Virus record (IMG/VR): IMGVR_UViG_2671180846_000036
Span: 1 to 16,577 of that record
Direction: 5' to 3' (one strand)
DNA: 16,577 nt
DNA from: a virus
Lineage: Duplodnaviria; Heunggongvirae; Uroviricota; Caudoviricetes
This document shows positions 1,762-16,577 of this stretch, piece by piece; positions within the stretch are counted from its first letter, which is position 1; every line of letters starts with the position of its first letter. The notes under the pieces were generated by a model. The model searched no databases. It was not told the origin of the DNA and saw nothing but the letters and a program-made list of their open reading frames with translations. A program made the translations under genes and the position numbers.

Positions 1762-1764
1762 TTT

Positions 1765-2007
1765 TTACTTCCTTTGCATGGCTCGTAATTTCTTCAGATG
1801 AGTTTCCTGCTCTGTTTCTGCCAGAATTTGTAGGTATTCCTGATGATCGAGCCGTTCAAACGTTTCATTAAAATCGTTTATTTTTACCGACTGTGTTCGC
1901 CCATCCATTCTTCTGTACAACACGGTGTTATTTATGCAGCGAATAATTCTTACCGGGTAACCGGCACTGTCGGTATACAGTTGTCCCTGATTAATCAAAG
2001 CGAACAT
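1765..2007 (-). CDS. Hypothetical protein, 80 aa (start trimmed to the internal ATG beginning MFALINQ)
   Basis: The long ORF 1765..2148 overlaps the upstream gene; the internal ATG at 2005-2007 is preceded by AGGAGAA. No recognisable motif. Confidence 0.45.
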   Translation of the reverse strand: MFALINQGQLYTDSAGYPVRIIRCINNTVLYRRMDGRTQSVKINDFNETFERLDHQEYLQILAETEQETHLKKLRAMQRK

Positions 2008-2038
2008 TTTTTCTCCTGCTCTCTGAATAGTGAGAACT

Positions 2039-2398
2039 TCAGAGTCGTATGTTTGTAGCGGGTTCAATGCTGATGATTTCTGCTGAGATAAGCATCCCGG
2101 CAAGCCAGAGCTCTCCGGACAGGTTTTCATCCTTGCATTCCAGTCCACCGATATTAATGGTGGCTATGATATCGCGCTCATCCTCGACTTCTTCATAAGG
2201 CAGCGTTGCGTACAGGCTTTCAATAGCGCAACTGATAACATCCAGTCCGGTCAGATTGCCGCCGACAGTAACTTCGAATGTTTCGCGGTATTCCCATAAC
2301 CCGAAAGTTAATCGAACGGTTTGTTTTGCCATGCGTCCGCATGACGTCAGATTCGGGTCATAGTTCATTATTTGCGGTTGGGCATTATGGGTGTTCAT
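2039..2398 (-). CDS. Hypothetical protein, about 119 aa (start trimmed to MNTHNAQ)
   Basis: ORF 2039..2470 overlaps the 3' end of the SPFH gene; the internal ATG at 2396-2398 is preceded by AAGGGAAAAG. No recognisable motif. Confidence 0.45.
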   Translation of the reverse strand: MNTHNAQPQIMNYDPNLTSCGRMAKQTVRLTFGLWEYRETFEVTVGGNLTGLDVISCAIESLYATLPYEEVEDERDIIATINIGGLECKDENLSGELWLAGMLISAEIISIEPATNIRL

Positions 2399-2438
2399 CT
2401 GCTTTTCCCTTAGCCCGGCGGCCTGCCGGGCATATAAG

Positions 2439-3266
2439 TTATTTAACCTGGATAAATGGTGTATTAGCACCGCTGGTCATGTATTGCGGCAGTGTGCCGT
2501 TCCATTTATTGATGGCTTCCAGCTCCATAACGCCGGGGTTCTGGCGCAGAGCTTCACCGCGTAAACGAATAGCATCAGCTTCGGCCTGGGCTTTTGTGCG
2601 AATCGCATCAGCCTGTCCGGCAGCTTCTGCGCGCAACATATTGGCTTCCGCTTCGCGCTGTTTTACTTCCTGCTCGCGCTGCAGTGTTTTCTGGTTCGCC
2701 GTGACTTTGGCATTAATGCTGTCGATAACGGTTGGCGGGTACTCCGGCTTACCCACATATGAGAGGCTCATTACCTGAATGCCGATAGGTGTCATCTCTG
2801 CCTGAATGTCTTTAAGAGCTTCATCCAGCAGCTCAGACTTGCCGCCGTCGATAAATTTGTCAGTGGTCATTTTGCTGGCCAGTCGGTTGAGTGCGTCGGC
2901 GATCTTCTGGCGCAGGTCAGTGTCGGTAATGTCATCCACGCCTTTGCGGTAGGTCTGAAACACCGTGGTAACTTTGGATGGATCAACTTTGTAGGCCACA
3001 CCGATGTGATAGCCGATGGTTGTACCGTCACTCATCTGGAAACTGAACGGTTCATCGTAGGTCTTCATTTGTTTGAAGGTGGGGAAGATATAAACTTCAG
3101 TATTCCAGCCAGTCCAGTAGCGACCAACACCGACCACCTCACCGACGCCTTTGTCGTCGCCCAGTTTATTTACCTTGATGCCAACATTACCTGGTTCAAC
3201 GCGATCGCAACCGACAAGGCCAATAGTCGGCAGAACAATGGCTAAAGCAAAAATAATTTTTTTCAT
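2439..3266 (-). CDS. SPFH/band-7 (prohibitin/stomatin-like) domain lipoprotein, 275 aa
   Basis: N-terminal lipoprotein signal peptide MKKIIFALAIVLPTIGLVGC with lipobox LVGC. Central beta-rich region followed by a long Ala/Glu/Arg/Gln-rich coiled-coil (REQEVKQREAEANMLRAEAAGQADAIRTKAQAEADAIRLRGEAL), the typical SPFH architecture. Start overlaps the stop of the upstream membrane-protein gene (ATGA). Confidence 0.75.
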   Translation of the reverse strand: MKKIIFALAIVLPTIGLVGCDRVEPGNVGIKVNKLGDDKGVGEVVGVGRYWTGWNTEVYIFPTFKQMKTYDEPFSFQMSDGTTIGYHIGVAYKVDPSKVTTVFQTYRKGVDDITDTDLRQKIADALNRLASKMTTDKFIDGGKSELLDEALKDIQAEMTPIGIQVMSLSYVGKPEYPPTVIDSINAKVTANQKTLQREQEVKQREAEANMLRAEAAGQADAIRTKAQAEADAIRLRGEALRQNPGVMELEAINKWNGTLPQYMTSGANTPFIQVK

Positions 3267-3451
3267 CTTTTATCCTTAGTGAAAGAAAGACCCTTGTAAA
3301 TGGCATAAATGCAGGGCGGGGTCAGAAACGCCAGTGCAAAGCCAGAAATAACTGCTATCGTATCCTTCATGGATATAAGGAACGGAACGAGTAATCCGTA
3401 AATGCATGCGATAATTGCCAGTGATATGACTATTCTGAAATAAATATTCAT
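3263..3451 (-). CDS. Small integral membrane protein, 62 aa, two predicted TM helices
   Basis: Two hydrophobic stretches (IVISLAIIACIYGLLVPFLI and IAVISGFALAFLTPPCIYAIY) with a basic C-terminal tail. Translationally coupled to the SPFH gene (ATGA overlaps at both ends). Confidence 0.6.
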   Translation of the reverse strand: MNIYFRIVISLAIIACIYGLLVPFLISMKDTIAVISGFALAFLTPPCIYAIYKGLSFTKDKR

Positions 3452-3726
3452 GCTCCTCCTGATATCTTTCTGATTGCCTTTTTCAACTTTTTACTGTTAT
3501 TCACGCTACAGTAAATTTCGGCAATCTCACGTGATAACATTATTTCTCCACTGTTTTTATCTATAGCAACGAGACTGGAATTGTCTCGTATGAGTTTCTT
3601 TATCATTGGCATTGCCATAAACTCTTCTGGCGTATAGATGCGTGTATGGCGGCGAACGTGTTTTATTACAGGTGTTTTATGTTTTGACTCAACCTGAAAT
3701 ACATTAATTTTATTCTGATTTGACAT
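3448..3726 (-). CDS. Hypothetical basic protein, 92 aa
   Basis: Complete ORF, ATG at 3724-3726 two nucleotides after the stop of the upstream gene; Lys/Arg-rich. No recognisable motif. Confidence 0.5.
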   Translation of the reverse strand: MSNQNKINVFQVESKHKTPVIKHVRRHTRIYTPEEFMAMPMIKKLIRDNSSLVAIDKNSGEIMLSREIAEIYCSVNNSKKLKKAIRKISGGA

Positions 3727-3728
3727 AT

Positions 3729-4310
3729 TTAATGTGCCACTGGTGTTTCTGGCATACCATGAGTATTCAGATCGTGAATCATTTCATCCAGAAGGAGTTC
3801 AAGCCCTTCGCGCCCCATAGCAGAAACAATGAAACCATTATCAGGATCTGCGATGAGCATATTTTGATAGAGAAACAGAACTCGCCCCATGCCTTCAGCT
3901 TCGCCATATTTTTCAATAAATCCCCATTCGACATGGTTTTGCAGGGCAATGCGAAGTGGTCCTGGGTATATACTCATGCAACCATGCTTCCCCTTATAAA
4001 TAACTGCGCGATCTGTAGTTCCGTCATCGTTAGGGATATCAATGGTGCCGTTCTTGCCTTCTTCTTCATTTATAAACGTCGTCACATACAGCCATCGCCA
4101 TTGAGCAATCTTCATATCGACTGAAAATCGTCCCAGTAATCCGGCATCATCGGCTTCAGCAATACATTGCATAATTCTTAAACCGTGAGAATTTGGATAA
4201 TCGTATTCACCATCATTAAGCCGCTGTACGGCCTCAACATAATCAATGGTTGTATTGCCCATTTTTATGCCATGTGGCGTAACTTCTGGTCGGAACTCTG
4301 AATGATTCAT
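3729..4310 (-). CDS. Hypothetical protein, 194 aa (start trimmed to MNHSEFRPEV)
   Basis: ATG at 4308-4310 overlaps the TGA stop of the upstream 67-aa gene (ATGA) and is preceded by AAGGAG 7 nt upstream. Acidic protein with no recognisable motif. Confidence 0.55.
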   Translation of the reverse strand: MNHSEFRPEVTPHGIKMGNTTIDYVEAVQRLNDGEYDYPNSHGLRIMQCIAEADDAGLLGRFSVDMKIAQWRWLYVTTFINEEEGKNGTIDIPNDDGTTDRAVIYKGKHGCMSIYPGPLRIALQNHVEWGFIEKYGEAEGMGRVLFLYQNMLIADPDNGFIVSAMGREGLELLLDEMIHDLNTHGMPETPVAH

Positions 4311-4510
4311 AATGTTTGCTCCTTTGCTGGTGGAATAATCGTGTAACCCGCTCTTTTTGCCATCCACAGAAATGTATCCATGCAGCCAACGAATTCATTA
4401 TCCAACAGATGTTTTGAGTAAATTACTTCACCATTTTCAATGGTTAGCAACACTCTTACTTTTTTATGTGTTATGTTTTGTTGTTTTTCTTCCATTGACT
4501 TATCTCCCAT
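4307..4510 (-). CDS. Hypothetical small protein, 67 aa, first gene of a five-gene leftward operon
   Basis: Complete ORF with a roughly 180-nt AT-rich upstream region (4511-4691) that probably carries the promoter; stop overlaps the next start. Confidence 0.45.
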   Translation of the reverse strand: MGDKSMEEKQQNITHKKVRVLLTIENGEVIYSKHLLDNEFVGCMDTFLWMAKRAGYTIIPPAKEQTL

Positions 4511-4691
4511 ATGCTTTGCGCAAATACAGGTTAGCTATATGAAGATAAGAATCTCCATGTTGTGCAATGAGGCAGGCAGTTTTATACGATGCCTTATGTT
4601 TCAGGAAAATCATAACATAATCTCCTGCGAATAAAGGTTGCAATAATCCCCGGCGATAAAACCGTAATAAACATTCAGGGAATATTTATTG

Positions 4692-5057
4692 TTATTGCGC
4701 TAATTCTTTTTCGGCAGCAGCTTTTGCATATTCACATGCAAAATTTAGAATTTCGCTGCCAAGTGTTTTTGTTTCGTGATTACTTGACATATGTAATACC
4801 TGTGTTGCATGCAATAAATGATAAACATTTACCGCAAATGAGTCCGGCTCCAGACAAATGCCTTCATAATCATCTTGTTGTGAGGTTGTTTCTGTCATTG
4901 CTCCTGAAGTGCATGCGAGCCTGTTTTTGACAATTCTCTTTCCTCTAATCACTATATCGGCAACATCTATTGCCTTTACAACCTCCGGGAGAAGTTCCGG
5001 GTTTGTATAATCAAAGTTATCAACATGGAGAACAGTTATGTTTTCGAACTTTTTCAT
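4692..5057 (-). CDS. Hypothetical protein, 121 aa
   Basis: Complete ORF in an AT-rich segment; no recognisable motif. Confidence 0.5.
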   Translation of the reverse strand: MKKFENITVLHVDNFDYTNPELLPEVVKAIDVADIVIRGKRIVKNRLACTSGAMTETTSQQDDYEGICLEPDSFAVNVYHLLHATQVLHMSSNHETKTLGSEILNFACEYAKAAAEKELAQ

Positions 5058-5185
5058 GGCTTCCTCAGCTGACTTATATGTTCTGCTATATAGCGAGTCT
5101 CAGAAGTGTTTTCATATTGAGACTGTTTCCGCAATGATCGATAAAAATGTTCGCATGTACCTTGAGGGGCGAAGCGGTGATTATG

Positions 5186-5734
5186 TCACCATTGGTATTG
5201 GTTCTTCCTTAGAAGAGCTTCGCGAGATAAGGAGCAAACTTGTTGAGATGCGTCATGGTGTTGCTGCTCCTCACTTTTTGGTTGCTCCGGAGGAGTAACC
5301 TCGCCAGTTAACAGCCACATCGGATCGCAGCCAAGAATATTTGCCAGTGGGATAAGCATACTGATAGTTGGTTCATACTCTCCGCTCTCCCACTGGATGA
5401 TAATTTCTTCATCGAGATCGAGCAGCCTGGCGAGTTCGGCGGTTGTTAAGCCGCAGGCTTCGCGTTGGGGGCGAAGGTTAACCAGCCAGCTTTCAGGGAA
5501 GGATTGTTTTTGTTGTGCAGGAGAAGCAGCAGATAGAGCATATTCATGGATAAATTCCATTACCTCAATGCCCAGTTCCTTTGAGCGAGCACAATCCAGA
5601 AGATGGAATGTGCGTACAGCACTTAGCAAATTTGCAATATTTAATGCAAAGGAATCAAGTTCTAAGCCCTTAAGCGTAACACAGCCGCAGTTGATAAAAT
5701 TAGTTGTTTCTGGAGTTGCGTTTAGTGTCTTCAT
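5186..5734 (-). CDS. XRE/Cro-C1-type HTH domain protein, 182 aa
   Basis: Segment LTTAELARLLDLDEEIIIQWESGEYEPTISMLIPLANILGCDPMWLL matches the XRE-family HTH pattern (helix, turn, QWE.G...P....L..LA..L). The HTH sits in the C-terminal half, which is atypical. Confidence 0.55.
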   Translation of the reverse strand: MKTLNATPETTNFINCGCVTLKGLELDSFALNIANLLSAVRTFHLLDCARSKELGIEVMEFIHEYALSAASPAQQKQSFPESWLVNLRPQREACGLTTAELARLLDLDEEIIIQWESGEYEPTISMLIPLANILGCDPMWLLTGEVTPPEQPKSEEQQHHDASQQVCSLSREALLRKNQYQW

Positions 5735-5843
5735 ATATCCACCAACAATTTTAAATTGAATTAAATCAAGTTATAATTGATGGTGCGATATTATGCTTTG
5801 AGAAATAGGCTGTCAAGAAAAAATTGATATTGTGTGTTTTAGG

Positions 5844-5868
5844 CAGAAAAAAACGGGCAAAGCCCGTT
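5844..5868 (-). terminator. Rho-independent terminator downstream of the repressor gene
   Basis: Plus strand aaaaaaa-AACGGGC-aaa-GCCCGTT; on the minus-strand transcript this is a 7-bp GC-rich stem, 3-nt loop, then a U7 tract, about 12 nt after the cI-like stop. Confidence 0.55.
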
Positions 5869-5879
5869 AAAATCAAAGA

Positions 5880-6575
5880 CTAACCAAATCTGTTTATATT
5901 GAATGGTACTGATGAGATCACTTTAGACTGGATATAAAGCAGAGCTAACCCCTCTTTTTCGATGCTCCATGGTTGATAATTGGGGTTATCAGATAACACC
6001 ATGATTTTGCTTCCAATTTTCTGAAGTCTTTTTACGTAGCATTCTCCATCAAAACAAAATGCATAAATGCCATCGCCATCAAAATAAGTTACTGTCTTAT
6101 CAAGAAAAAGAAGGTCGCCAGGTGAGATTGTGGGAGCCATACTGTCTCCTCTGGCGTTACCTATTTCTATATTTTTGAATGCCCGATTTCCAACAAGGCG
6201 TCGGGCATATTCAGGGTCAAGTTCTATTGAGCGCACTACATCTATCAAGTCACCACGGACATGAGTTCCATCACCGCAACTAAACTCAACATCAAGGACA
6301 TTAAACACGACGCTATCTGTTCTTGTCTGGTGTTTCTCTTGCGAGGAAAAGGTTGGTGAGGAGTCTTCACCTAAGAACCAGGATTGTGGATAACCGCTAA
6401 TCTCTGATAAATGCGCGAGCTTATCACTCCGTGGAAATGTTTTTCCTGTTGTCCAATACTGCACTGATTGCGCACTCACACCTAACTTGCGGGCCAGTTG
6501 AGCCTGAGTCCATCCTTTTGCTTTCAGCATTGCGGCTATTCGATTTTCCGTGTTTTTGACGTTCTTCATAACCAA
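5880..6575 (-). CDS. cI: CI-like phage repressor (N-terminal HTH, C-terminal S24 LexA-like autopeptidase), 231 aa
   Basis: N-terminal HTH (WTQAQLARKLGVSAQSVQYWTTGKTFP). The C-terminal domain carries the S24 catalytic Ser in GDSMAPT and the Lys in YVKRL. Divergent from a Cro-like gene across a 127-bp repeat-containing intergenic region. Confidence 0.9.
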   Translation of the reverse strand: MVMKNVKNTENRIAAMLKAKGWTQAQLARKLGVSAQSVQYWTTGKTFPRSDKLAHLSEISGYPQSWFLGEDSSPTFSSQEKHQTRTDSVVFNVLDVEFSCGDGTHVRGDLIDVVRSIELDPEYARRLVGNRAFKNIEIGNARGDSMAPTISPGDLLFLDKTVTYFDGDGIYAFCFDGECYVKRLQKIGSKIMVLSDNPNYQPWSIEKEGLALLYIQSKVISSVPFNINRFG

Positions 6576-6702
6576 ATCCTGTGGGTTTCTTTACAAGGAT
6601 AAATCTTTACTTGATTTTAGTGTATTCGATCCTTTTGTAACTTGCATGTTAATTTAAACTTGATGTATTCTTGATTCATAAAGTTAATATTGGTGCTTTG
6701 TT
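6576..6702. promoter_or_regulatory. Immunity-switch intergenic region (putative divergent promoters and operators)
   Basis: AT-rich 127-bp region between divergent cI-like and cro-like genes. Contains the imperfect inverted pair TACAAGGAT / ATCCTTTTGTA and several copies of ACTTGAT / CTTGATT. Exact operator half-sites and -10/-35 boxes were not resolved. Confidence 0.5.
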
Positions 6703-7002
6703 ATGAAAGGAAATGATTACGACAAACTTCGTGCATTAATTGCGCAAAATGCCATAGCGCGAAATCTTGGTGTGACGCCGCAAGCGGTGAATCAGTGGTT
6801 TTCAAAAAACACAATTCCTGCTCGTTTCGTTTTACGCGTATGTGAAGTAGTTGCATGGAAGGTCACGCCACATGGCTTAAGGCCAGATCTTTATCCTCAC
6901 CCTGAAGATGGAATTCCTGATTCGTTACGCAAAATTTCAAATCCAAGCTTAGCGCGCACGGAAGATGGGCAGAGTGATTTATCAGAAATGTCCACGCGAT
7001 GA
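6703..7002 (+). CDS. Cro-like HTH regulator, 99 aa
   Basis: Small protein with HTH (AIARNLGVTPQAVNQWFSKNTIP) transcribed divergently from the cI-like gene, in the canonical cro position. Short leader and weak SD. Confidence 0.7.
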   Translation: MKGNDYDKLRALIAQNAIARNLGVTPQAVNQWFSKNTIPARFVLRVCEVVAWKVTPHGLRPDLYPHPEDGIPDSLRKISNPSLARTEDGQSDLSEMSTR

Positions 7003-7078
7003 ACGGTTACTGAACGAAAAAAGAAAAGCCGGGCCGCATTCCGTCAGCCCGACTTATTCTGATTAGTAAGGGGATTTC

Positions 7079-7924
7079 ATGATGATCAATAAACAAAAAT
7101 TAGTCAACCCTGAAAACCTGCCAGTTATTGCTGGTGTAGAAATTTCAACTGATATGGTTGGGCGCTTTAATCTGAATGCATTGCATCGAGCCAGCGGTCT
7201 TGGCCCCAATAAAGCTCCGACGCAGTGGTTGCGTACTCAGTCAGCTAAACAACTTATTGAAGAGCTGGAAAAAGAAACTATGCAGAATTGCATAGTTTCA
7301 CTGGAAGGGCGGAATGGCGGTACTTTTGCGCACGAACTGCTTGCTGTTGAATATGCAGGATGGATTTCTCCTGCGTTCCGGTTGCAGGTGAACCAGACTT
7401 TTATTGACTATCGTACTGGCAAACTTACAGCGGGCAATAATCAGTTACCCAATTTTGACGATCCGATCGCTGCTGCTGAAGCGTGGATTGAGGCCAGAAA
7501 AGCCGAACGCCTTGCTCTCGGGTATGTAGAGCGTCAGGCTCGCTACATCAACAAACTTGAAAGCCATCTCGCCGATGGCATCACTCCTGTGCAGTTCTGC
7601 AAACAACTCAACGGTGTAAACACTCGTCAGATTAATGCGTTCCTTGAAGAGCGTAACTGGCTGTATGACGACCGTCCGGAGGCGATGTATCCGCGCTGGC
7701 GTGTAAAAGCGTATGCACGTGACCAATACCTGACTGAGCGTTCTGGGCAGGTTGAGCAGGAAAACGGGGAAATGCGCGAGATTTTCAAACCACTCCTGAA
7801 GAAAAAAGGTGCCGCCTGGTTATATCGCCATTATCTGAACGGCGAACTACCGATGAAGAAAACATGGGATGGGCTATTTACCCATAACACTGAGCTCGCG
7901 AATCTTTTACAGGAGAACAAATGA
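7079..7924 (+). CDS. KilA-N domain protein with C-terminal antirepressor-like region, 281 aa
   Basis: N-terminal segment FNLNALHRASG...GGTFAHELLAVEYAGWISPAFRLQV matches the KilA-N signature as I recall it (GTWxHP.LA...A.WlSP.F). AAGGGGA RBS upstream; stop overlaps the next gene start. Confidence 0.6.
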   Translation: MMINKQKLVNPENLPVIAGVEISTDMVGRFNLNALHRASGLGPNKAPTQWLRTQSAKQLIEELEKETMQNCIVSLEGRNGGTFAHELLAVEYAGWISPAFRLQVNQTFIDYRTGKLTAGNNQLPNFDDPIAAAEAWIEARKAERLALGYVERQARYINKLESHLADGITPVQFCKQLNGVNTRQINAFLEERNWLYDDRPEAMYPRWRVKAYARDQYLTERSGQVEQENGEMREIFKPLLKKKGAAWLYRHYLNGELPMKKTWDGLFTHNTELANLLQENK

Positions 7925-8133
7925 TGCAAACCAAGACGTGTGTAACTGGTGATGTCGATCTGAAACCTTGCCCGTTCTGCGGAAATCCGGAAGTACAACT
8001 CATTGAGGTGAAATATTTTCTGGATGGCGATGATGGTTATTACGTCGCATGTACTTGCTGTAACGCAAACCAGATTCCTGATTCGAAAGAACGTGCCGTT
8101 CATGACTGGAACCAGCGCGAAAACGTGGATTAA
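7921..8133 (+). CDS. Small zinc-ribbon protein, Lar-like (putative restriction alleviation), 70 aa
   Basis: Two Cys pairs (LKPCPFCG ... CTCC). The LKPCPFCG motif and size fit the Lar-family restriction-alleviation proteins of Rac-type prophages as I recall them. Translationally coupled (ATGATG) to the upstream gene. Confidence 0.5.
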   Translation: MMQTKTCVTGDVDLKPCPFCGNPEVQLIEVKYFLDGDDGYYVACTCCNANQIPDSKERAVHDWNQRENVD

Positions 8134-8447
8134 CGGCGAGTAGGTACAAAATGATCCGCAACCAAAATATTGATTCTGCAATTTCGGGACGTTACACTGT
8201 TCCGGCACCTTATAAAGCGGGTGCCGGGATTGGAACCCCGGAATTGCTCGAGGCGATATACGACGCGCCAGCGTCTTTTTTATCGTCCATGCTCGCGCAC
8301 GCCAGAATTATGGTGGGCTGGGCAGGGGAGCCGAAAGGCTCGCCGGTTTCCTTGAGCGCCGGTAGTTCCAACCCTGTCCAGTCCGCCACCAGTGAGATTG
8401 GAACCTCCGGTGGTGGAAGTTTTTCACTGCTCAAGGAGGCTGCCATC

Positions 8448-8810
8448 ATGGCTACAGTCCCAACTTCCCCATACCTGAAAATCGAAGTCGTCAACGGCAA
8501 AGCTGTTATTTTCTCCCTGCATGTTGCCTGCCACTTTAAGCGCATGCACCAGAACATCGTCGACAAAATCGAGTATCTGAACTGCTCACGCGAATTTTTT
8601 ACCCGCAATTTCATACCGGGTACTTATCACATCTATGGTGACTCCCTGCGTGGTTATTACATCACCCTTGATGGGCTGATGATGCTTCAGCTTGGGTTAA
8701 GTCTGCGCACAATGCGGTACTACGAGAGCTGCATTGAAGTATTCCATGAGGCTGAAACCAGTCTGAATCACACTGCTTTCCGCCGTAATCAATGGGAGGT
8801 GCGCCCATGA
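8448..8810 (+). CDS. Rha-family phage regulatory protein, about 120 aa (start at internal ATG; in-frame ORF extends back to 8151)
   Basis: VVNGKAVIFSLHVACHFKRMHQNIVDKIEYLNCSREFF...YITLDGLMMLQLGL resembles the Rha N-terminal domain pattern (V.NG.avt.Sl.vAe.FgK.H.nVlrdi..l.cs.eF...mTrdGf.lL.mg). The ATG at 8448 has a strong AAGGAGG RBS 8 nt upstream; the upstream in-frame extension is GC-rich, low-complexity and lacks a good RBS. Confidence 0.6.
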   Translation: MATVPTSPYLKIEVVNGKAVIFSLHVACHFKRMHQNIVDKIEYLNCSREFFTRNFIPGTYHIYGDSLRGYYITLDGLMMLQLGLSLRTMRYYESCIEVFHEAETSLNHTAFRRNQWEVRP

Positions 8811-9031
8811 TTCGTCGCGTTGTGAATTCTCTGTATCACCGATACAACCGTTGCCCCCGTGTGGGGCAGTGGTTTGCCACCAGCAACGGTCATGTTCTGC
8901 GGGTTTGCCTGGTCAGTACCGAAAGCCAGAAAGTCGTGTGTGAATTACTGGGGCGTAACTACACCATTAGCTACCCACTGGCGGTGTTTCAGTCCGGAAA
9001 AATGTTTAAACGCCTGGGAGGTGCCGTGTGA
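8807..9031 (+). CDS. Hypothetical small protein, 74 aa (start at MIRRV)
   Basis: ATG at 8807 overlaps the Rha stop (ATGA) and is preceded by GGGAGGTG. No recognisable motif. Confidence 0.45.
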   Translation: MIRRVVNSLYHRYNRCPRVGQWFATSNGHVLRVCLVSTESQKVVCELLGRNYTISYPLAVFQSGKMFKRLGGAV

Positions 9032-9984
9032 GTAGCAAAATTCTCGGTAACGTCTGGGATGCATGTGCCGCGTATGGAGTCAAAGGTGCAAAGCTGATGA
9101 TCATGGCGCGCCTGGCTGATTATTCGAATGATGACGGGGTGTGTTACCCCGGTGTTGAAACAATATGCCGACAGCTTGGGTTGGGAGAAAGCACAGTAAG
9201 AACGGCAATTTCAGAGCTGGAGGCTGATGGCTGGCTGACGCGTCATTCACGCCGCAAAGGTAATCGTAATACGTCCAATCTTTATCATCTGAATGCTGAT
9301 CGGCTTGAACAGCTTGCCAGAACGGAGCGGGATAAGGTCGCTGAACTGAAAAAACAGCGCAGACTTTCAGCATTACGTGACCCGTCAGAATCTGAACCGT
9401 CAGAATCTGAACCTTCAAAATCTGAACCGTCAGAATCTGAACCTTCAAAATCTGACCAGTCAGAATCTGAATGTTCAGGTGTGTTTGACCCTTCAGATTC
9501 TGGCAAAAAAACGGTTTTGACCCTTCAGAATCTGGACCCAGATCCACAAGGTTTAAAACATGATCCACAAGTAAATTCAAAACATGATCCGCAAGATATT
9601 GGCGCATCCGCTGACGCGTCTGCACCAGCGCGTTCTGCCCGACAGGAATATTCACCGGAATTTGAACAGGCCTGGCAGGAATATCCCAAACGTGCTGGTG
9701 GCAATTCCAAGTCAGCAGCCTTCAAAGCCTGGAAAGCCCGTCTCAGGGAGGGAATAAAACCGGAGACCATGCTTGATGGTGTGAGACGTTATGCCGCCTG
9801 GGTACGTGCTACAGGAAATACCGGCACACAGTTCGTGAAGCAGGCTGCGACGTTCTTTGGACCCGATCGTCATTTCGAGGAAGCCTGGCAACAGCCAGCC
9901 GCTCCCGGAGGTGGGCGAACTACCGGCCTCCCGATCTCGGGATTCAGTGAGCAGGACTACGGTTCAACGAACTTCAACTGGTGA
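9028..9984 (+). CDS. Replication initiator / replisome organiser (O-like; N-terminal wHTH, repeat-encoded Ser/Glu/Pro linker, C-terminal DnaT-like region), 318 aa
   Basis: N-terminal HTH-like region (CYPGVETICRQLGLGESTVRTAISELEADGWL); an internal low-complexity linker PSESEPSESEPSKSEPSESEPSK encoded by DNA tandem repeats; position immediately upstream of the DnaC-like and DnaB-like genes. The arrangement parallels lambda O, where ori iterons lie inside the gene. Confidence 0.7.
   Translation: MSSKILGNVWDACAAYGVKGAKLMIMARLADYSNDDGVCYPGVETICRQLGLGESTVRTAISELEADGWLTRHSRRKGNRNTSNLYHLNADRLEQLARTERDKVAELKKQRRLSALRDPSESEPSESEPSKSEPSESEPSKSDQSESECSGVFDPSDSGKKTVLTLQNLDPDPQGLKHDPQVNSKHDPQDIGASADASAPARSARQEYSPEFEQAWQEYPKRAGGNSKSAAFKAWKARLREGIKPETMLDGVRRYAAWVRATGNTGTQFVKQAATFFGPDRHFEEAWQQPAAPGGGRTTGLPISGFSEQDYGSTNFNW
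9382..9471. repeat. Six tandem 15-bp direct repeats (consensus CCGTCAGAATCTGAA), putative origin iterons
   Basis: Read directly: CCGTCAGAATCTGAA x2, CCTTCAAAATCTGAA, CCGTCAGAATCTGAA, CCTTCAAAATCTGAC, CAGTCAGAATCTGAA. The core CAGAATCTG is near-palindromic. Two further copies (GACCCTTCAGATTCTGG and GACCCTTCAGAATCTGG) lie at 9487-9535, followed by CATGATCCACAAG repeats and A/T-rich spacers at 9541-9600. Confidence 0.7.
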
Positions 9985-10003
9985 TTTTTCGAGGTGATGA
10001 ACA

Positions 10004-10894
10004 ATGTTTGAACAGTTAAAAAAATACTACGCACAACACGACAAAGCGCAATTGCTCAACCGCAGGGCGGAACTGGAGGAGGAGATGCAGTTTGCCCGTG
10101 CCGGGAAGCGTCCGTGGCGCTGTGAACACTGGCTGACAAGCGAGGAAACTGCTGAGTGTGAGAAACACGGGAAATACACACGTCTGGTGTTGAAAGGGCC
10201 AGATGTTCGTGGGGAAGCCATCAAACGGGTGTCTGGTTGCCCGACCTGCATTGCGAATGAACTGGATCAGGTACAGGAGGCGTTACGCATCCTGAAAGTT
10301 CATGAATTACTCGACAGGGCTGGTATTGCCCGCCGCTTCCAGAACTGCGAGTTTGAGAATTATCAGGCGGTGAATGCTGACGCACAGAGAAATCTTGAGG
10401 CTTGTCGGCGCTATGCCGGTTCATGGGAGAAGTGTCTTGCTGCGGGTACCAGCATGATCATGATTGGCAATTGCGGTACCGGGAAAAATCACCTGGCTGT
10501 ATCAATGGCAAAAAATATTATTCGCCACCACCTGGCGACTGTCGAAATTACGGATGTTATGCGACTGACCCGCGCTGTGAAAAATACCTGGCGTCACAAT
10601 TCTGAACGCACTGAAGATGAAGTTATTGACCATTTTGTATCGCTGGACCTGCTCATCATCGATGAGGTTGGTGTGCAGTTCGGTACGCCAACAGAGATAA
10701 CCATCCTGCAGGAAATCATCAATGCGCGTTACGAAAGCGTGTTACCGACAATTTTGATCAGCAATCTGACGTTTGAACAGCTTAAGGAATCCATTGGTGA
10801 ACGGATTGTGGATCGCGTTACTGATGGTGGGCGTAACTGTCTGGTGTTTGGTTGGGAAAGCTACCGTGCACATATCAGAGGTGTGGCAGCATGA
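10004..10894 (+). CDS. DnaC-like helicase loader (IstB-like AAA+ ATPase), 296 aa
   Basis: Walker A GNCGTGKNHLA and Walker B LLIIDEVG. N-terminal Cys cluster (RCEHW ... GCPTC) suggests a zinc-binding module. GAGGTGA RBS upstream. Confidence 0.85.
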   Translation: MFEQLKKYYAQHDKAQLLNRRAELEEEMQFARAGKRPWRCEHWLTSEETAECEKHGKYTRLVLKGPDVRGEAIKRVSGCPTCIANELDQVQEALRILKVHELLDRAGIARRFQNCEFENYQAVNADAQRNLEACRRYAGSWEKCLAAGTSMIMIGNCGTGKNHLAVSMAKNIIRHHLATVEITDVMRLTRAVKNTWRHNSERTEDEVIDHFVSLDLLIIDEVGVQFGTPTEITILQEIINARYESVLPTILISNLTFEQLKESIGERIVDRVTDGGRNCLVFGWESYRAHIRGVAA

Positions 10895-12282
10895 CAACTC
10901 CAGTCTGGCGTAACGATGACCTGGAAGGCGCTGTCATTGGCGCGTTCTTTCTGCGCGGGGCAGATCCTGAAGTGATGGATATTCTGGCCACACTACCTGC
11001 GGACGTTTTTTCTGTACGACCGTATCGGGATATCTACACAGGCATCTGCAGACAGGCCCGTGTTTCAGGTGTGATTGACCCTGTGCTGCTGTGTAATGAG
11101 ATGCCGGAACTTGCCCCGGTGATTACTGATACCGGGCGTAAAACCTGGGTGAAGTCTTCACTGGAGCACTATGTTGCAGCGTTGCGTCGCAATGCCGCAC
11201 TGCGTGATGCAGAAAAGACGCTGAATGAGGCGTTGCAGAAATTACGTGATGCGCATACCTGTGAAGCAGCTGAAGATGCCCTGAAGGATGCGCAGAACAT
11301 GATGGCCTCATTGTCGACGGAAAAGGGCGTTATTCAGCCGGTACATATTGATGATGTGCTTCCGGAAGTGGTTGAGCGTGTTGAATGCCGGAATCAGGGG
11401 CTGGAGAAATCCAGGACGTTGATGACCGGTATTGATGAACTGGACGCAAAAACGGGCGGCATGGAGCCTGGCGACCTGGTATTTATTGCTGCACGTCCTT
11501 CGATGGGCAAAACCGAACTGGCGCTGGATATCATCGACAAGGTGACTGAGCAGGGGCATGGTGTTCTTCTGTTCACAATGGAAATGGCGAACATCCAGAT
11601 TGGTGAGCGCATGGTATCTGCGGCTGGAGGAATGCCGGTATCACGTCTGAAATCTGTCACTCACTTTGAAGACGAAGACTGGGCACGTTTCTCACAAGGG
11701 GTGGGGCGGATGACCGGGCGCAATATCTGGATGGTGGACCAGGCGAACCTGACCATTGACGAGATATGCGCAACAACGAAACACCACCTGATTAAACATC
11801 CGGAAACGGCGCTGGTGGTGGTTGATTATCTCGGACTGATAAAAACCCGAACCACGGGGCGTCATGACCTTGCCGTGGGTGAAATCTCAAAGGGGCTTAA
11901 AGGTCTGGCAAAATCCGGTGGTTTTCCGTTGATTGCGCTGAGTCAGCTCTCCCGCGGTGTGGAGTCCAGACCCAATAAACGTCCGATGAACTCAGACCTG
12001 AAAAATTCCGGAGAAATAGAGGCGGATGCAGACATCATTCTGATGCTTTACAGGGATGAAGTGTACAACCCGGATACGCAGGCCAGGGGCATCGCAGAAA
12101 TCAATATCACGAAACAGCGTAACGGTTCTCTGGGGACGGTTTACCGGCGTTTTTATAACGGACATTTTCTGCCTGTGGATCAGGAAAGCGCACAGATTCT
12201 TTCCACCCCAATGCAGCAGCCCCAGCCGCGCAGATACAGCAATAAGCGAACCGACAGCAGTAAGATGGAGCGTTTCTTTTGA
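10891..12282 (+). CDS. DnaB-like replicative DNA helicase, about 463 aa (start at MTTPVW)
   Basis: RecA-like C-terminal domain with Walker A ARPSMGKTELAL, Walker B-like VVVDYLGLI and the SQLSR motif typical of DnaB-family helicases. ATG at 10891 overlaps the DnaC-like stop (ATGA). Confidence 0.85.
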   Translation: MTTPVWRNDDLEGAVIGAFFLRGADPEVMDILATLPADVFSVRPYRDIYTGICRQARVSGVIDPVLLCNEMPELAPVITDTGRKTWVKSSLEHYVAALRRNAALRDAEKTLNEALQKLRDAHTCEAAEDALKDAQNMMASLSTEKGVIQPVHIDDVLPEVVERVECRNQGLEKSRTLMTGIDELDAKTGGMEPGDLVFIAARPSMGKTELALDIIDKVTEQGHGVLLFTMEMANIQIGERMVSAAGGMPVSRLKSVTHFEDEDWARFSQGVGRMTGRNIWMVDQANLTIDEICATTKHHLIKHPETALVVVDYLGLIKTRTTGRHDLAVGEISKGLKGLAKSGGFPLIALSQLSRGVESRPNKRPMNSDLKNSGEIEADADIILMLYRDEVYNPDTQARGIAEINITKQRNGSLGTVYRRFYNGHFLPVDQESAQILSTPMQQPQPRRYSNKRTDSSKMERFF

Positions 12283-12293
12283 ACAACCAGACC

Positions 12294-12536
12294 ATGACTT
12301 TTACGCCTGAACAATTACGTAAACAGGCACAGGAAATGTTACGACAGGCGGAACAACTGGAAAAGACAGGCGTAACAAAAGATGCCATTCGTAAGGATAT
12401 GGTGCCAGCGCTCAGGGAACTGATGCAGGCGAAACACCGCGCACAAAAAGCAGTGGATGAGCTGGTGGATTGTGTGGCAGAGCTGGAAACCAAAGTTGGA
12501 AAGTTCGAAAAACTGGTGCAGGAGGTACTGCGCTGA
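12294..12536 (+). CDS. Small coiled-coil hypothetical protein, about 80 aa
   Basis: Charged helical sequence (EQLRKQAQEMLRQAEQLEK...). The track ORF begins at a TTG at 12279; the first ATG is at 12294. Stop overlaps the Q start (TGATG). Confidence 0.45.
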   Translation: MTFTPEQLRKQAQEMLRQAEQLEKTGVTKDAIRKDMVPALRELMQAKHRAQKAVDELVDCVAELETKVGKFEKLVQEVLR

Positions 12537-12904
12537 TGCGTGATATGTACGAAGTTTTAGATCGTTGGGGGGCCTGGGCTGCAGCAGATAACAGTGGTGT
12601 GGACTGGCAGCCGATAGCAGCAGGCTTCAAGGGGCTTTTACCACACGGTAAAAAGTCACGTCTCCAGTGTGATGATGACGAAGGTATCATGATAGACGGT
12701 TGTGTGGCTCGGTTGCGAAAGTATAAACCCGAAGAGTATGAGTTGATCATTGCTCACTTTGTTATTGGTATCTCATTACGCGCTATTGCTAAAAAACGGA
12801 AATGTTCAGATGGAACAATACGGAAAGAGATGCAAACAGCAATGGGGTTTATTGATGGCTGCTTGTCATTTTTCATTTACTACAATGACTTAAGTTCTAT
12901 GTAA
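12536..12904 (+). CDS. Q: Late-gene antitermination protein Q (phage 82/21/DLP12 QuuD-type), 122 aa
   Basis: [60 protein letters not shown]... closely parallels the N-terminus of DLP12/phage-21-type Q as I recall it ([34 protein letters not shown]...[20 protein letters not shown]). Position after the replication genes fits. Confidence 0.85.
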   Translation: [122 protein letters not shown]

Positions 12905-12910
12905 AATCGT

Positions 12911-12945
12911 TCTACTTTCCCAACTTTTATGTGTATATAATACCA
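12911..12945 (+). promoter_or_regulatory. Putative promoter region downstream of Q (candidate PR'-like late promoter or cargo-gene promoter)
   Basis: AT-rich stretch with a consensus TATAAT hexamer at 12936-12941, about 27 nt upstream of the GTG start of the methyltransferase; no convincing -35. Proximity to the Q stop (12904) matches where lambdoid PR'/qut sites lie. Confidence 0.3.
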
Positions 12946-12967
12946 GGATAAAGTAACGGAGAATCTT

Positions 12968-14008
12968 GTGAACATTCAGGCAGTAGACATTTTTTGTGGT
13001 GCGGGGGGCTTAACTTTTGGGCTAAAAAAAGCCGGGATTGAGGTTTCTCATGGTATTGATATTGATGAATCCTGCCGTTTTGCTATTGAGAGCAATAATC
13101 CTTTAACGCAGTTCATTAATCAGTCAGTTACAGAACTGCAATCCTGCGATGTGTCTGCTATGTTCAAGGAAGGAAATATTAGATTGCTTGCTGGATGTGC
13201 TCCTTGCCAACCGTTTTCCAAGTATCGTAATCCAAATAGCCGTAAAGACGATACAAAGTGGCGTTTGTTATATGAGTTTCAAAGGCTTGTAAGTGATGTC
13301 ATGCCAGAGCTTGTGACGATGGAGAATGTTCCTCAACTTAGAAACCATAAGGTTTTTGAAGGGTTTGTTAGTGCATTAAAGACTCTTGGATATCATTTGT
13401 GGTACGACGTTGTAAGATGTTCTGAGTATGGCTTACCTCAAAATAGACGTAGATTAATTCTAATTGGTTCCCAATTGGGGCCGATCAGCCTTGATCAAAA
13501 AAAAGTTAGCCGTAAAGTTACTGTTAAGGATGCTATTGGTAGGTTGCCAAAAGTAGGGGCAGGTGAGAAGCTGGAAAGCGATCCCTTGCATCGTTCGCCT
13601 AAATTGATGGATATCAATCTTAAACGAATCATGCATTCTTTACCTGGTGGTACGTGGGATGACTGGCCTGAAGAAATTAGAGCAGACTGTCATAAAAAGA
13701 ATTCAGGTGCTACCTATAAAAGCGTTTATGGACGGATGGTTTGGGACGATACTAGCCCTACGATAACTACCCAGTGTTATGGATATGGAAATGGACGATT
13801 TGGCCATCCTGAGCAAAATCGCGCCATAACTTTGCGTGAAGCTGCGATTTTGCAATCCTTTCCAATGGATTATAAATTCCTTGACAAGGAGACGCCTTTT
13901 TCATTCCAAAAATTGGGGACAATGATTGGAAATGCTGTTCCCCCTATAATTGGTCAGATAATAGGGGAAACATTTATCAGACATGTTGAGGGGATAAATA
14001 CCCGTTAG
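12968..14008 (+). CDS. DNA (cytosine-5)-methyltransferase (Dcm-type), 346 aa, GTG start
   Basis: Canonical C5-MTase motifs in order: I DIFCGAGG (FxGxGG), IV GCAPCQPFS (catalytic PCQ), VI TMENVPQL (ENV), VIII QNRRRL, X GNAVPP. ACGGAG RBS upstream. AT-rich relative to the replication module. Confidence 0.9.
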   Translation: MNIQAVDIFCGAGGLTFGLKKAGIEVSHGIDIDESCRFAIESNNPLTQFINQSVTELQSCDVSAMFKEGNIRLLAGCAPCQPFSKYRNPNSRKDDTKWRLLYEFQRLVSDVMPELVTMENVPQLRNHKVFEGFVSALKTLGYHLWYDVVRCSEYGLPQNRRRLILIGSQLGPISLDQKKVSRKVTVKDAIGRLPKVGAGEKLESDPLHRSPKLMDINLKRIMHSLPGGTWDDWPEEIRADCHKKNSGATYKSVYGRMVWDDTSPTITTQCYGYGNGRFGHPEQNRAITLREAAILQSFPMDYKFLDKETPFSFQKLGTMIGNAVPPIIGQIIGETFIRHVEGINTR

Positions 14009-14666
14009 AGGTAATATAATTTTCTGTTGAGTTGATTAATAAACGCAAATATAGATCAATTCTTTCTGACCTCGATTTGACTTCTTCTAAAGGGTCTATT
14101 TGACCTTTTTTAGAAAAGCTGGTACTTCCATGTGCCAGCTCATTTCTGATATCTTTAAGTAAATCTAAGTCAACACCATTTCTACACTCTGGTGAGTTTG
14201 CAACAGTTATTCCGTAAGCTTGTGTTATTTTGTGCAATACAGACTTGCAAACATTACCATTGAATTCTTTACGTATGTTTAATGAGGCTGAAATGATCCT
14301 TTTAGATATATCGGAACCAATTTTTTGATAAAGAGATTTTCCCGATTCATTATCTGAAATGATACGGTGCAAGATATTTACTTGGAATTTCTCCCTGAGT
14401 GATGCGTAATTTACTTCATTATCTTGCAAATGGTCATAAATTGACTCAATGCATCCTCTGGCAGTGTTTTCAACCTGATTGTACAGCATCATGTGCACGG
14501 ATGATTTTAAAATGTTAACCCTAAGGGTATTTGATTCTATTTCATCTTTATGCGTTTGCTGATCTAACTGCTGAGTCTGAGCCTCTAAAGATGACGCAAG
14601 AGAAAGCAATTCCATAATATCTCTTGCTCTTTCTTCGTATTCATCTCTTAAATCAATCAAACTCAT
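13977..14666 (-). CDS. HEPN-like protein (Rx4H motif; resembles the MAE_28990/MAE_18760 HEPN family), 229 aa
   Basis: Predicted all-helical protein with the motif DIRNELAHG (R-x4-H) in the C-terminal third, the hallmark of HEPN RNase domains. Second gene of a two-gene operon (start 2 nt after the DUF262 gene stop). Its 3' end overlaps the convergent C5-MTase gene by 32 bp. Confidence 0.55.
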   Translation of the reverse strand: MSLIDLRDEYEERARDIMELLSLASSLEAQTQQLDQQTHKDEIESNTLRVNILKSSVHMMLYNQVENTARGCIESIYDHLQDNEVNYASLREKFQVNILHRIISDNESGKSLYQKIGSDISKRIISASLNIRKEFNGNVCKSVLHKITQAYGITVANSPECRNGVDLDLLKDIRNELAHGSTSFSKKGQIDPLEEVKSRSERIDLYLRLLINSTENYITSNGYLSPQHV

Positions 14667-14668
14667 AG

Positions 14669-15826
14669 TTACATTCCTAATAATTTATCTTTGACATAAA
14701 ATATTCTGTTTTTGAGTTGGCTGGTGTTGTTGGCACTATCAGCAGTAACTATGGTTTCAAATTCCTCCCCAAACAGCCAGTCTCCTACAGGAATAACCGG
14801 AGCCTGTAGATGTGGATTGGCTTTTAAGGCAAGAGCAGTTCCCACTGCTATGGCTTCGTATCTAGCACGGGGGGTGGTTTTGCTTGTTGGTGTCTTTTTA
14901 AACCCCATAGGGAAATGAGTATCTACAAAAGCAAGCATGCTTTCAAAATCATGTTTAAATTTGTCAACATCTTGTTGTGTGACCCTTTCGGCCTGAACAT
15001 TAAGATAATTGTCAATAAAAGGAGCGACATAACCCTTATAATTTTCTAAATCATTTAAGTATGCAAAAAATCTCAAAACTAACTCACGATGATCGCCATT
15101 CGAACGCTTCCGGTCTGATAATGGAGCTAGACTAGCGAAAAGTGGATTTGTTGAGCAAGGAGTCACAACATCCCTATAGAAAATTGAAGTGGCCGCATCT
15201 GAACCATGTCTAACCTCCATCGCTTCCAGTCTCTTAACACCTGAATTTATTCTTTCGAATAAATCTCTTCTATGTTGCTCCTCAACATCACCTTTCAATT
15301 CAATAAATCTTAGTGATGCCCTTAAAAATCGCCTCTGGCGGCTAGCCAAAAGATCTGAAAATTTGAAGCCCTCTAAACTTTTGAGTTCTTTTAAGTCTTT
15401 CAATTCAAACTGATTGTTCCAAAAGTAGTAAATTGAGCGAATCCTTTGTGAACCGTCAATAATTTCTACACGACCATCCAACTCAGGATCTTCATTAAAT
15501 ACGTCGGAGATGTAGAGGTACGGGATTGGAAAATCTAATAATATACTTTCGATGAATCGAGAGGCTGTTTTGATATCCCATTTGTAATCGCGTTGATAAT
15601 CAGGAATAAAAAGTTCGTTTTTGTCAGTTTCAAGATTATTGCCATACTTTTGTACAATTAATTCAACGGTCCATTCACGTACGTTGTATCCAATATTTCT
15701 CTGAGCAAGCCTAATCTCGTTGTCGGCAGAAGTGACCAAGGCTGCAATTTCAGCTTTTTTTCTATTTTTCGCGTTTTCATCTTGAATCTGAGCAAGCTCT
15801 TCTTTGAGTTCTTTGAGTGTGGTCAT
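14669..15826 (-). CDS. DUF262 (ParB/Srx-like NTPase, GmrS-N-like) domain protein, 385 aa
   Basis: N-terminal region contains the two DUF262 signature motifs: IPDYQRDYKW (P-x-[FY]-QR-x-Y-x-W) and EIIDGSQRIRSIY (DGQQR-like). No recognisable C-terminal HNH/DUF1524 nuclease. AGGAA RBS upstream of the ATG at 15824-15826. Confidence 0.8.
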   Translation of the reverse strand: MTTLKELKEELAQIQDENAKNRKKAEIAALVTSADNEIRLAQRNIGYNVREWTVELIVQKYGNNLETDKNELFIPDYQRDYKWDIKTASRFIESILLDFPIPYLYISDVFNEDPELDGRVEIIDGSQRIRSIYYFWNNQFELKDLKELKSLEGFKFSDLLASRQRRFLRASLRFIELKGDVEEQHRRDLFERINSGVKRLEAMEVRHGSDAATSIFYRDVVTPCSTNPLFASLAPLSDRKRSNGDHRELVLRFFAYLNDLENYKGYVAPFIDNYLNVQAERVTQQDVDKFKHDFESMLAFVDTHFPMGFKKTPTSKTTPRARYEAIAVGTALALKANPHLQAPVIPVGDWLFGEEFETIVTADSANNTSQLKNRIFYVKDKLLGM

Positions 15827-15936
15827 ATCACTGTTCCTTTAATTGGAGTTGGAAATAGATTGTAAGAAAACTATAACGCGTACGCAAAAAATATTATATC
15901 GTGTTAAGAGTGGTTACTACGCCACACAGCTTAAAC

Positions 15937-15957
15937 CCGCCGCCAGGCGGTTTTTTG
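15937..15957 (+). terminator. Putative rho-independent terminator (plus-strand orientation)
   Basis: CCGCC-gcca-GGCGG hairpin (5-bp GC stem, 4-nt loop) followed by TTTTTTGTGT. No plus-strand CDS lies immediately upstream, since the region between 14008 and 15826 is occupied by minus-strand genes. Confidence 0.4.
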
Positions 15958-16079
15958 TGTCCGAAAAACGGCGCAGTACGTTAAACGTGCTGGTGGTTGC
16001 GAATACCGGTCTTTCAGCTTGCTGGCTTTTCAGACAAGAGTTATTGGTGTGTCACGTTAACCAGAAAAGGGAAAAAGAC

Positions 16080-16277
16080 ATGCTAAAACAGCAGGATATG
16101 ACCGAAACCGCCAGAGTGGTATTTAATGAATTAAGTGTCACCGAACCGGCGACCGTCGGGGAAATTGCGCAGAATACCTACCTTTCACGCGAACGCTGCC
16201 AGTTAATACTGACCCAGCTTGTTATGGCGGGTCTGGCAGATTATCAGTTCGGTTGTTACAGACGCCTTCCGCAGTGA
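16080..16277 (+). CDS. Small putative winged-helix DNA-binding protein, about 65 aa (start at MLKQQ; alternative start MTETA at 16098)
   Basis: Internal start of ORF 15843..16277, preceded by AAAAGGGAAAAAG. Segment ATVGEIAQNTYLSRERCQLILTQLVMAGLA looks like a wHTH recognition helix and is reminiscent of FaeA/PapI-like small regulators; the resemblance is weak. Confidence 0.4.
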   Translation: MLKQQDMTETARVVFNELSVTEPATVGEIAQNTYLSRERCQLILTQLVMAGLADYQFGCYRRLPQ

Positions 16278-16427
16278 AGGCTTTTTAATTTGTGGTAATG
16301 GGCGGCTGGTGGGTGTTAGCGGCACCTGCCAGCCATCTGCTCATGCGTTGGGGTCACAAGCAAACCTCAGGCCCATCTGCTTTGCGCAAAAGCGGAATGA
16401 GCCTATCAGAGAAGTGCTTATTGATCT

Positions 16428-16577
16428 ATGGCTAATACTGTAAAAATATCCAGTTGTGAGTTAATCAACGCTGATTGCCTGGAATTTATCCAGACCTTAC
16501 CGGAAAACTCTGTCGATCTGATAGTCACAGACCCGCCATACTTTAAAGTGAAGCCCGAGGGCTGGGATAACCAGTGG
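16428..16577 (+). CDS. DNA methyltransferase, N6-adenine/N4-cytosine class (DPPY motif), 5' partial (first 50 codons; runs off the window)
   Basis: Hand translation from the ATG at 16428: MANTVKISSCELINADCLEFIQTLPENSVDLIVTDPPYFKVKPEGWDNQW. SVDLIVTDPPY is the catalytic motif IV (DPPY) of amino-MTases, placed near the N-terminus as in beta-class enzymes. Absent from the ORF track because no stop lies within the window. Confidence 0.75.
   Translation, partial: MANTVKISSCELINADCLEFIQTLPENSVDLIVTDPPYFKVKPEGWDNQW

Follow-up and report, generated by a model that had tools for sequence, protein, structure and literature searches.

Does the run of direct repeats inside a phage replication gene mark the place where that phage begins to replicate, or is it simply the coding sequence of a repetitive stretch of protein? 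The question is raised by a 16,577-nucleotide (nt) stretch of DNA, positions 1 to 16,577 of the virus record IMGVR_UViG_2671180846_000036 (Caudoviricetes), which we analyzed over its full length and refer to as the window. Open reading frames (ORFs) and family searches identify the window as the left half of a lambdoid prophage, and the repeats lie within its replication initiator gene, an ORF with a GTG start that encodes 318 amino acids (aa) at 9028-9984 on the plus strand. From sequence comparison, we consider it very likely that the interval 9378-9600, in the linker-coding part of this gene, is the replication origin of a prophage of the phiP27 type. An in-gene origin had been proposed in the first-pass annotation of this DNA, and the proposal is now supported by constraint acting on the DNA itself, by the dyad symmetry of the repeats, by an offset within the gene that matches those in lambda and P22, by co-variation of the repeats with the N-terminal domain of the initiator, by the modular exchange of the parts, and by the lack of a second array in the early region.

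The repeats are as they had been described: six tandem units of 15 base pairs (bp) at 9378-9471, followed by two separate copies. Each tandem unit holds an 11-bp dyad core, TCA(G/A)AATCTGA, beginning at 9385, 9400, 9415, 9430, 9445, and 9460, with 4-bp spacers between cores. Tandem Repeats Finder resolves 9378-9471 both as 6.3 copies of a 15-bp period (84% matches) and as a 30-bp super-period (92% matches); the units alternate between CCG-TCAGAATCTGA and CCT-TCAAAATCTGA, and this alternation, with the longer period, suggests that the latest expansions duplicated pairs of units. The seventh core, TCAGATTCTGG, is found at 9493-9503, 33 bp past the sixth, and the eighth, TCAGAATCTGG, at 9525-9535; between them is a conserved A-tract/T-tract spacer, CAAAAAAACGGTTTTGACCCT (9504-9524), which may form an intrinsic bend. 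A repeat search places the starts of eight in-register copies at 9378, 9393, 9408, 9423, 9438, 9453, 9486, and 9518, the last two spanning 9486-9506 and 9518-9538. With one mismatch allowed, the core TCAGAWTCTGA occurs eight times in the whole window (0.34 expected), every time within 9385-9535 and nowhere else in the window, and none of 200 shuffles reached eight. No further iteron-like array was found within 6500-12950.

Several comparisons indicate that selection acts on the DNA of these repeats, beyond the SESEP peptide that they encode. The first-pass annotation held that the repeats encode a SESEPS linker, and this is true of seven of the eight copies, which encode S-E/K-S-E/D-P; the eighth (core at 9525) has a frame offset of 2, as against 0 for the other seven, and is read as LTLQNLD. 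Relatives have 33 bp where the window has 32 before the eighth core, and CGGG where the window has ACCCA after it; with one base more before and one less after this core in relatives, the window lineage carries a compensated frameshift pair, one that altered the peptide and kept the DNA. Codon choice was compared across about 85 distinct relatives, with the gene divided by protein coordinates alone and the linker taken as aa 96-150. Serine is encoded by TCA or TCT in 86% of cases in the linker; the corresponding figures are 21% for the N-terminal part and 31% for the C-terminal part. Lysine is encoded by AAA in 95% of cases in the linker, compared with 60-64% elsewhere in the gene, and valine by GTA in 57%, compared with 10-15% elsewhere. 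Aspartate and proline, which fall at spacer positions, had no bias in the same test. When the window is compared with its relatives, third positions of codons in the N-terminal domain have almost reached saturation (identity 0.24-0.57), and the distal origin block retains an identity of 0.66-0.89 over 50-113 nt, a figure somewhat inflated by local alignment. Finally, both halves of the core have changed symmetrically, to TCAAAATTTGA, in Kp4866-6, a Klebsiella phage with 47% identity to the window in the N-terminal domain.

The repeats are linked to the N-terminal domain of the initiator. In a scan of one genome per species across the Enterobacterales, in which iterons were detected by their periodicity, 80 loci encode a related N-terminal domain, and most of these have three to seven cores at 15-nt spacing that start about 300 nt into the gene. 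Their common layout consists of tandem iterons, a spacer element (CAAAAA..CG..TTTT(G/C)ACCC) that recurs across genera, a last iteron ending in CTGG, and two to three GATCCRTCAGTAA..TTCAAAACAW units; a solitary core is kept 33 or 48 bp past the tandem run. Where the predicted recognition helix reads ST(V/I)RTAI the cores are TCARAATCTGA, and where it reads KTTVSAAI or ENTVRSAI (Erwinia and Mixta loci, and Kp4866-6) they are TCAAnnnTTGA. More distant initiators of the HTH_36 family have unrelated repeats at the same position: GGGGCAGGAGCTGCCC three times in Min27, TGCCATCTGATGGCA four times in ST15-VIM1phi2.1, and CCTGTGCC/GCACAGG in ZF40. None of the approximately 95 loci examined has the repeats in a homologue that is not a replication protein, an occurrence that, according to the first-pass annotation, would refute an origin. 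Array length is variable, from two to six tandem units in complete Escherichia coli genomes, always in steps that are multiples of 15 bp; phiP27 has three, and the six of the window are the maximum seen. Iteron number also varies among natural relatives of lambda, from four in lambda to six in Shiga toxin (Stx) phages (PMC7466680).

Two further observations concern E. coli sequences. Matches that start inside the array (query 124-361) were considered as a different N-terminal domain on the same iterons, and this was rejected; they are the same protein encoded by slightly diverged DNA with three tandem units. In E. coli ECDA1023 (CP178308.1, locus from 3501), the first 90 or so residues of a 455-aa ORF match the initiator N-terminal domain, and the ORF then runs on into unrelated sequence, terminase-like by eye, with no iterons; it resembles an e14-type ymfN fusion from which the origin has been deleted.

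The position of the array within the gene is that of characterized in-gene origins. It begins 350 nt into the initiator gene (offset 350-572, aa 117-190); the annotated iterons of lambda start 348 nt into O, and the annotated rep_origin of P22 occupies offsets 352-496 nt of gene 18. The encoded protein consists of an N-terminal winged helix-turn-helix (Pfam HTH_36 at aa 23-70, expectation value [E] 1e-11), an unstructured linker rich in serine, glutamate, proline, and aspartate (about aa 117-200), and a helical C-terminal domain (about aa 200-295), so that the repeats sit between the two domains. An AlphaFold2 model built from the single sequence has a winged helix-turn-helix pattern, a helix at 90-117, no secondary structure over 118-209, and helices at 210-287; since its confidence is low (predicted local distance difference test score of 52), we use it for the pattern of secondary structure only, and the predicted fold fits an origin embedded in the linker. 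As in lambda, direct repeats with internal dyad symmetry have an A/T-rich segment on the side away from the promoter; the iterons go with the N-terminal domain, and a helicase-delivery partner goes with the C-terminal domain. The differences from lambda are substantial nonetheless: eight 11-bp cores spaced at 15 bp rather than four 18-bp iterons (as annotated) 20-24 bp apart; an A/T-rich part composed of GATC-headed units, with a lower A/T content and no purine asymmetry; a DnaC-like loader (IstB_IS21, phrog_50) and a phage DnaB in place of the P protein; and an initiator that belongs to HTH_36 rather than Phage_rep_O and has no significant BLASTP similarity to O. With P22 the window shares a DnaB-family helicase of its own (40% identical to gp12), whereas gp18 is a member of Phage_rep_O, its iterons are unrelated (TCGGTAAAAC type), and there is no DnaC-like loader gene between the P22 initiator and helicase.

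In lambda O, the N-terminal half determines origin specificity and the C-terminal half partner specificity, and the initiator of the window is divided in a way that matches. Where Megablast matches cover the 3′ portion of the gene only, they start at query 570, corresponding to window position 9597, the first base past the A/T-rich block, so that the segment encoding the C-terminal domain (9597-9984, plus strand) has a module boundary near 9597, at ATTGGCGCATCC. In Stx1_14040, an unrelated N-terminal half with repeats of its own (of GGGAAACCC type, then ACAGAGAATAC four times) joins the same C-terminal sequence at ATTGGCGCATCC. The C-terminal domain of the window type is accompanied by DnaC-like and DnaB genes in four of four loci, one of which has an unrelated N-terminal domain and repeats; 83 loci combine a related N-terminal domain and iterons with another C-terminal domain, and no DnaC or DnaB homologue is found downstream in these. 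From the homology confined to the C-terminal part and these co-occurrences it follows that the N-terminal domain and the repeats form one exchange unit, and the C-terminal domain, loader, and helicase another. A further combination is seen in Flotzy, PhiR49_1_star, and two loci of our set (L005 and L006), in which an HTH_36 N-terminal domain and the same iterons are joined to a C-terminal domain of lambda O type (Pfam Phg_2220_C; phrog_277, phrog_2357); no P, DnaC, or DnaB gene follows the initiator in these four.

The first-pass annotation called the initiator gene O-like, a fair description in the sense of analogy and distant homology, though not one of family membership. The only Pfam match of the protein is HTH_36, while lambda O and P22 gp18 match Phage_rep_O (PF04492). 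Neither BLASTP nor a shallow profile-profile comparison (hhalign) with lambda O and P22 gp18 gave a significant result, and direct homology to either was rejected, the sole link being cross-matches among PHROG profiles. The best PHROG family of the initiator is phrog_270, 'replication initiation protein' (E 8e-76); it also matches two families in which lambda O and/or P22 gp18 score strongly, phrog_678 (E 7e-13) and phrog_345 (E 2e-11), and P22 gp18 reciprocally matches phrog_270. These profile matches point to a remote kinship between the N-terminal domains of the initiator and gp18. The N-terminus of O protein has itself been assigned to the HTH_36 type by HHpred (Brezellec et al. 2017; PMC5509034). 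Among solved structures, the initiator gave only weak matches to the winged helices of FadR and PaaX (E 0.14-0.55); FadR likewise uses a short dyad site, which we take only as a hint. NCBIfam offered no informative model for the initiator, and no Rep_3-type Pfam match was found.

Immediately downstream of the iterons is an A/T-rich segment with a GC content of 29-33% over 9541-9600. It is made up of three units, with GATC at 9541, 9562, and 9586, each consisting of GATCC(A/G)CAAG and an A/T-rich spacer; CATGATCCACAAG, CATGATCCGCAAG, and CAGATCCACAAG are found at 9539-9596 with the spacers between them. The GC content falls to 29% over 9552-9600; the window as a whole has 45%, and the initiator gene outside this stretch 50-57%. 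The A/T-rich spacers reported by the first-pass annotation are thus present, but the block that they form is only moderately unstable. By analogy with other origins, we propose that the block at 9541-9600 is the DNA-unwinding element. The units of the window are spaced 21 and 24 bp apart, longer than the 13-mers of oriC, to which their sequence is unrelated. Of 87 distinct relatives, 76 have two or more GATCCRYNA motifs past the iterons, and 74 of 82 intervals between these motifs measure 24 bp; GATC sites in relatives concentrate at gene offsets 400-550, and the repeats are kept even in lineages with different iteron cores. In the close relative Stx2_KH16-043 (2994-3038), two units out of three read GAACC instead of GATCC. 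Two or three copies of GAACCAGTCA(CT) are present in more distant HTH_36 initiators, and P22 has GAATCAGTCAAAC past its iterons (at about 1915-1927). The GATCC/GAACC motif after the iterons may represent an element that these origins share more widely, or it may reflect nothing other than codons for aspartate or glutamate followed by proline.

From this anatomy, and by analogy, we infer how such an origin could operate. Derepression would lead to rightward early transcription and synthesis of the initiator, dimers of which would bind the eight 11-bp TCAGAWTCTGA dyads through the N-terminal winged helix-turn-helix. With six cores packed at 15 bp and two set apart by the A-tract/T-tract spacer, which presumably helps to shape the complex, the resulting nucleoprotein assembly would destabilize the three adjoining GATC-headed units at 9541-9600. 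The initiator C-terminal domain would then recruit the DnaC-like loader and DnaB-like helicase of the phage, encoded just downstream, after which host primase and polymerase would take over.

Certain observations weigh against this interpretation. The proposed unwinding block is the second least stable stretch within 8800-12300 but is only among the 3-9% least stable in the full window. It is weaker than the corresponding part of lambda, with a GC content of 29-33% compared with 22%, and the purine asymmetry of lambda is absent (0.55-0.57 compared with 0.73). The 15-bp spacing would set adjacent sites on nearly opposite faces of the helix, whereas the iterons of lambda are spaced about two turns apart. 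Repeats arise by duplication and the loci are phylogenetically related, so that the codon-test counts do not represent independent events. Lastly, the searchable literature yielded no experiment on binding, unwinding, or replication for this type of origin.

Binding-site arrays can serve control, as they do in iteron plasmids, and the alternative that best withstands the evidence is that the repeats are true initiator-binding sites used for regulation (autoregulation, titration, or the exclusion of related phages), with replication starting elsewhere. In addition to the plasmid precedent, the moderate character of the A/T-rich block would accommodate this, as would the lower stability of the intergenic sequence at about 9970-10030. 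We nevertheless judge it improbable. The array is not at a promoter, and no promoter-like site was found nearby on the plus strand; iterons followed by A/T-rich DNA occur at the same gene offset as in the annotated origins of lambda and P22; no second array was found in the early region; and the GATC block travels with the iterons rather than with the C-terminal or DnaC module. A second alternative supposes that the GATC block and the last iterons are kept mainly as a shared junction at which homologous recombination swaps initiator halves between mosaic prophages. The block does lie exactly at the border of the two exchangeable modules, and it is similar across genera even where iteron cores differ, but crossing over at a sequence is not in itself enough to conserve it, and the regular 24-bp spacing of GATC suggests a structural or binding role. 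Moreover, Stx1_14040 joins the same C-terminal module through a different A/T-rich repeat (ACAGAGAATAC four times), which places the GATC block on the origin side rather than making it a universal linker, and we find this explanation very improbable. The least credible proposal, that the repeats are a coding feature only, a low-complexity SESEP linker that joins two domains, is prone to slippage, and does not function as DNA, draws on the seven in-frame copies of eight, the variation of the array by whole units (two to six) among E. coli genomes, as expected of slippage, and the predicted lack of structure in the linker, yet a DNA element is favored over a mere peptide repeat because the DNA of the eighth copy is conserved in a frame other than that of the rest, strong codon bias is found at core positions only, the dyad has changed symmetrically in both halves in one lineage, and the linker is conserved beyond the synonymous sites of the folded domain.

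The conserved GATC-headed pair or triplet is the one feature that could repay experiment. It is possible, although we think it unlikely, that the 24-bp GATC repeats constitute a methylation-sensitive unwinding or licensing element common to a large family of Enterobacterales prophage origins, whatever their iteron specificity. Were this so, Dam methylation, and SeqA bound to pairs of hemimethylated GATC sites about two helical turns apart, would time or limit firing, and the presence of an N6-adenine methyltransferase gene after the initiator in many relatives would be explained. Such a gene is found downstream in 53 of 84 related loci, about 0.9-3.7 kilobases past the start of the initiator, a raw count that has no prophage-wide baseline; 42 of the 53 enzymes are phage Dam proteins (PF05869) and 11 are of the D12 class. 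No such gene is present in the lineage of the window.

Iteron plasmids (P1 oriR, F, pSC101, RK2) and oriC resemble the organization proposed here, in that several initiator sites are combined with an A/T-rich unwinding element composed of short repeats. In oriC, the 13-mers carry adenine-methylation sites, and the RK2 element consists of 13-mer repeats (PMC5043065). The origin of the window differs from those of iteron plasmids in that its initiator is not of the Rep_3 type, its spacing is 15 bp rather than about 22 bp, it lies inside coding sequence, and DnaA boxes are not above chance. DnaA boxes were considered as a component of the origin and rejected: a single 8-of-9 match, TGATCCACA, occurs there at 9561, relatives carry GATCCGTCA instead, and the 8-of-9 matches of the window (10, compared with 4.3 expected) are scattered throughout it, with no enrichment in the origin.

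The closest sequenced phage is phiP27 (AJ298298/NC_003356), deposited as a complete phage genome, whose genes L17-L19 correspond to the replication genes of the window; the initiator DNA is 96% identical. The iteron cores, the out-of-frame distal copy, the GATC block, and the DnaC-like/DnaB arrangement are the same in both, the difference being the three tandem units of phiP27 (3+2 iterons) as against six. In its annotation, L17 is only a helix-turn-helix or hypothetical protein, and no origin feature is given. Smith et al. (2012; PMC3430580) classified the phiP27 replication genes as a separate type, 'O4/P4', and did not discuss the origin, and the papers on Eru classification, which deal with non-lambdoid Stx phage replication regions, make no mention of phiP27, iterons, or an origin. 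We found no published description of this origin, although the original paper on the phiP27 genome might contain a remark on it. Work from the Wegrzyn laboratory on a 'P27' replicon (Kozlowska et al. 2020; PMC7466680) was considered as direct evidence and rejected as concerning a different system: the O protein of that replicon is two residues removed from lambda O and is therefore not L17 of phiP27. The names invite confusion, the Stx phage 'P27' of lambdoid plasmids and O-iteron studies being distinct from the Stx2e phage phiP27, whose L17 matches the window.

It seems most likely that the origin of the window is an uncharacterized, widespread example of the textbook lambda-like arrangement; the principle of an origin inside an initiator gene would be extended to another initiator family, and nothing is overturned. 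Of 5426 complete E. coli genomes, about 400-480 carry a replication module of the phiP27 type; the phages that have it include Stx-converting ones. The level of phage replication affects Shiga-toxin output, and for this reason the origin and its specificity determinants are worth knowing. They could be used in classifying the non-lambda replication types of Stx phages, in predicting replication incompatibility or cross-activation between co-resident prophages, and in building mini-replicons.

The remainder of the window is organized as a lambdoid prophage. An integrase gene (1-1314) and a CI-type repressor gene (5880-6575), both on the minus strand, precede a Cro-like gene (6703-7002), and the regulators KilA-N/Ant and Ash/Rha are also encoded. 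The initiator, DnaC-like, and DnaB-like genes are consecutive in the early-right operon. The loader (10004-10894, plus strand, 296 aa) matches Pfam IstB_IS21 (E 1e-15) and phrog_50, 'DnaC-like helicase loader' (E 3e-83), and its match to the NCBIfam DnaC model NF005931 (E 3e-44) falls under the curated cut-off of that model. The DnaB-family replicative helicase (10852-12282, plus strand) matches Pfam DnaB_C (E 6e-73) and TIGR00665 (E 1e-92); its ORF was drawn mechanically from a TTG codon, and translation probably starts slightly downstream of it, in an overlap with the end of the DnaC-like gene like that in phiP27. The Q antiterminator gene follows at 12470-12904.

Directly after the Q gene is a C-5 cytosine DNA methyltransferase gene (12968-14008, plus strand; Pfam DNA_methylase, E 1e-53), the 3′ end of which overlaps the end of a convergent HEPN gene. 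The latter is one of two adjacent genes on the minus strand (13977-15826), in an A/T-rich stretch beyond Q and the methylase, that encode a 229-aa HEPN protein (Pfam HEPN_MAE_28990) and a 385-aa DUF262/GmrSD_N protein (PADLOC NsnA, E 7e-46; PD-T4-2_A, E 3e-27). The pair looks like an anti-phage defense cassette, at the site where Stx phages carry stx. In the early-left region, a 275-aa protein of the SPFH/Band 7 family is encoded at 2439-3266 on the minus strand. A tandem repeat of 17-18 bp, present in 1.9 copies (TCTGATTCAGCATTGCTA), is found at 78-111, where it falls within the 3′ portion of the integrase ORF (opposite strand).

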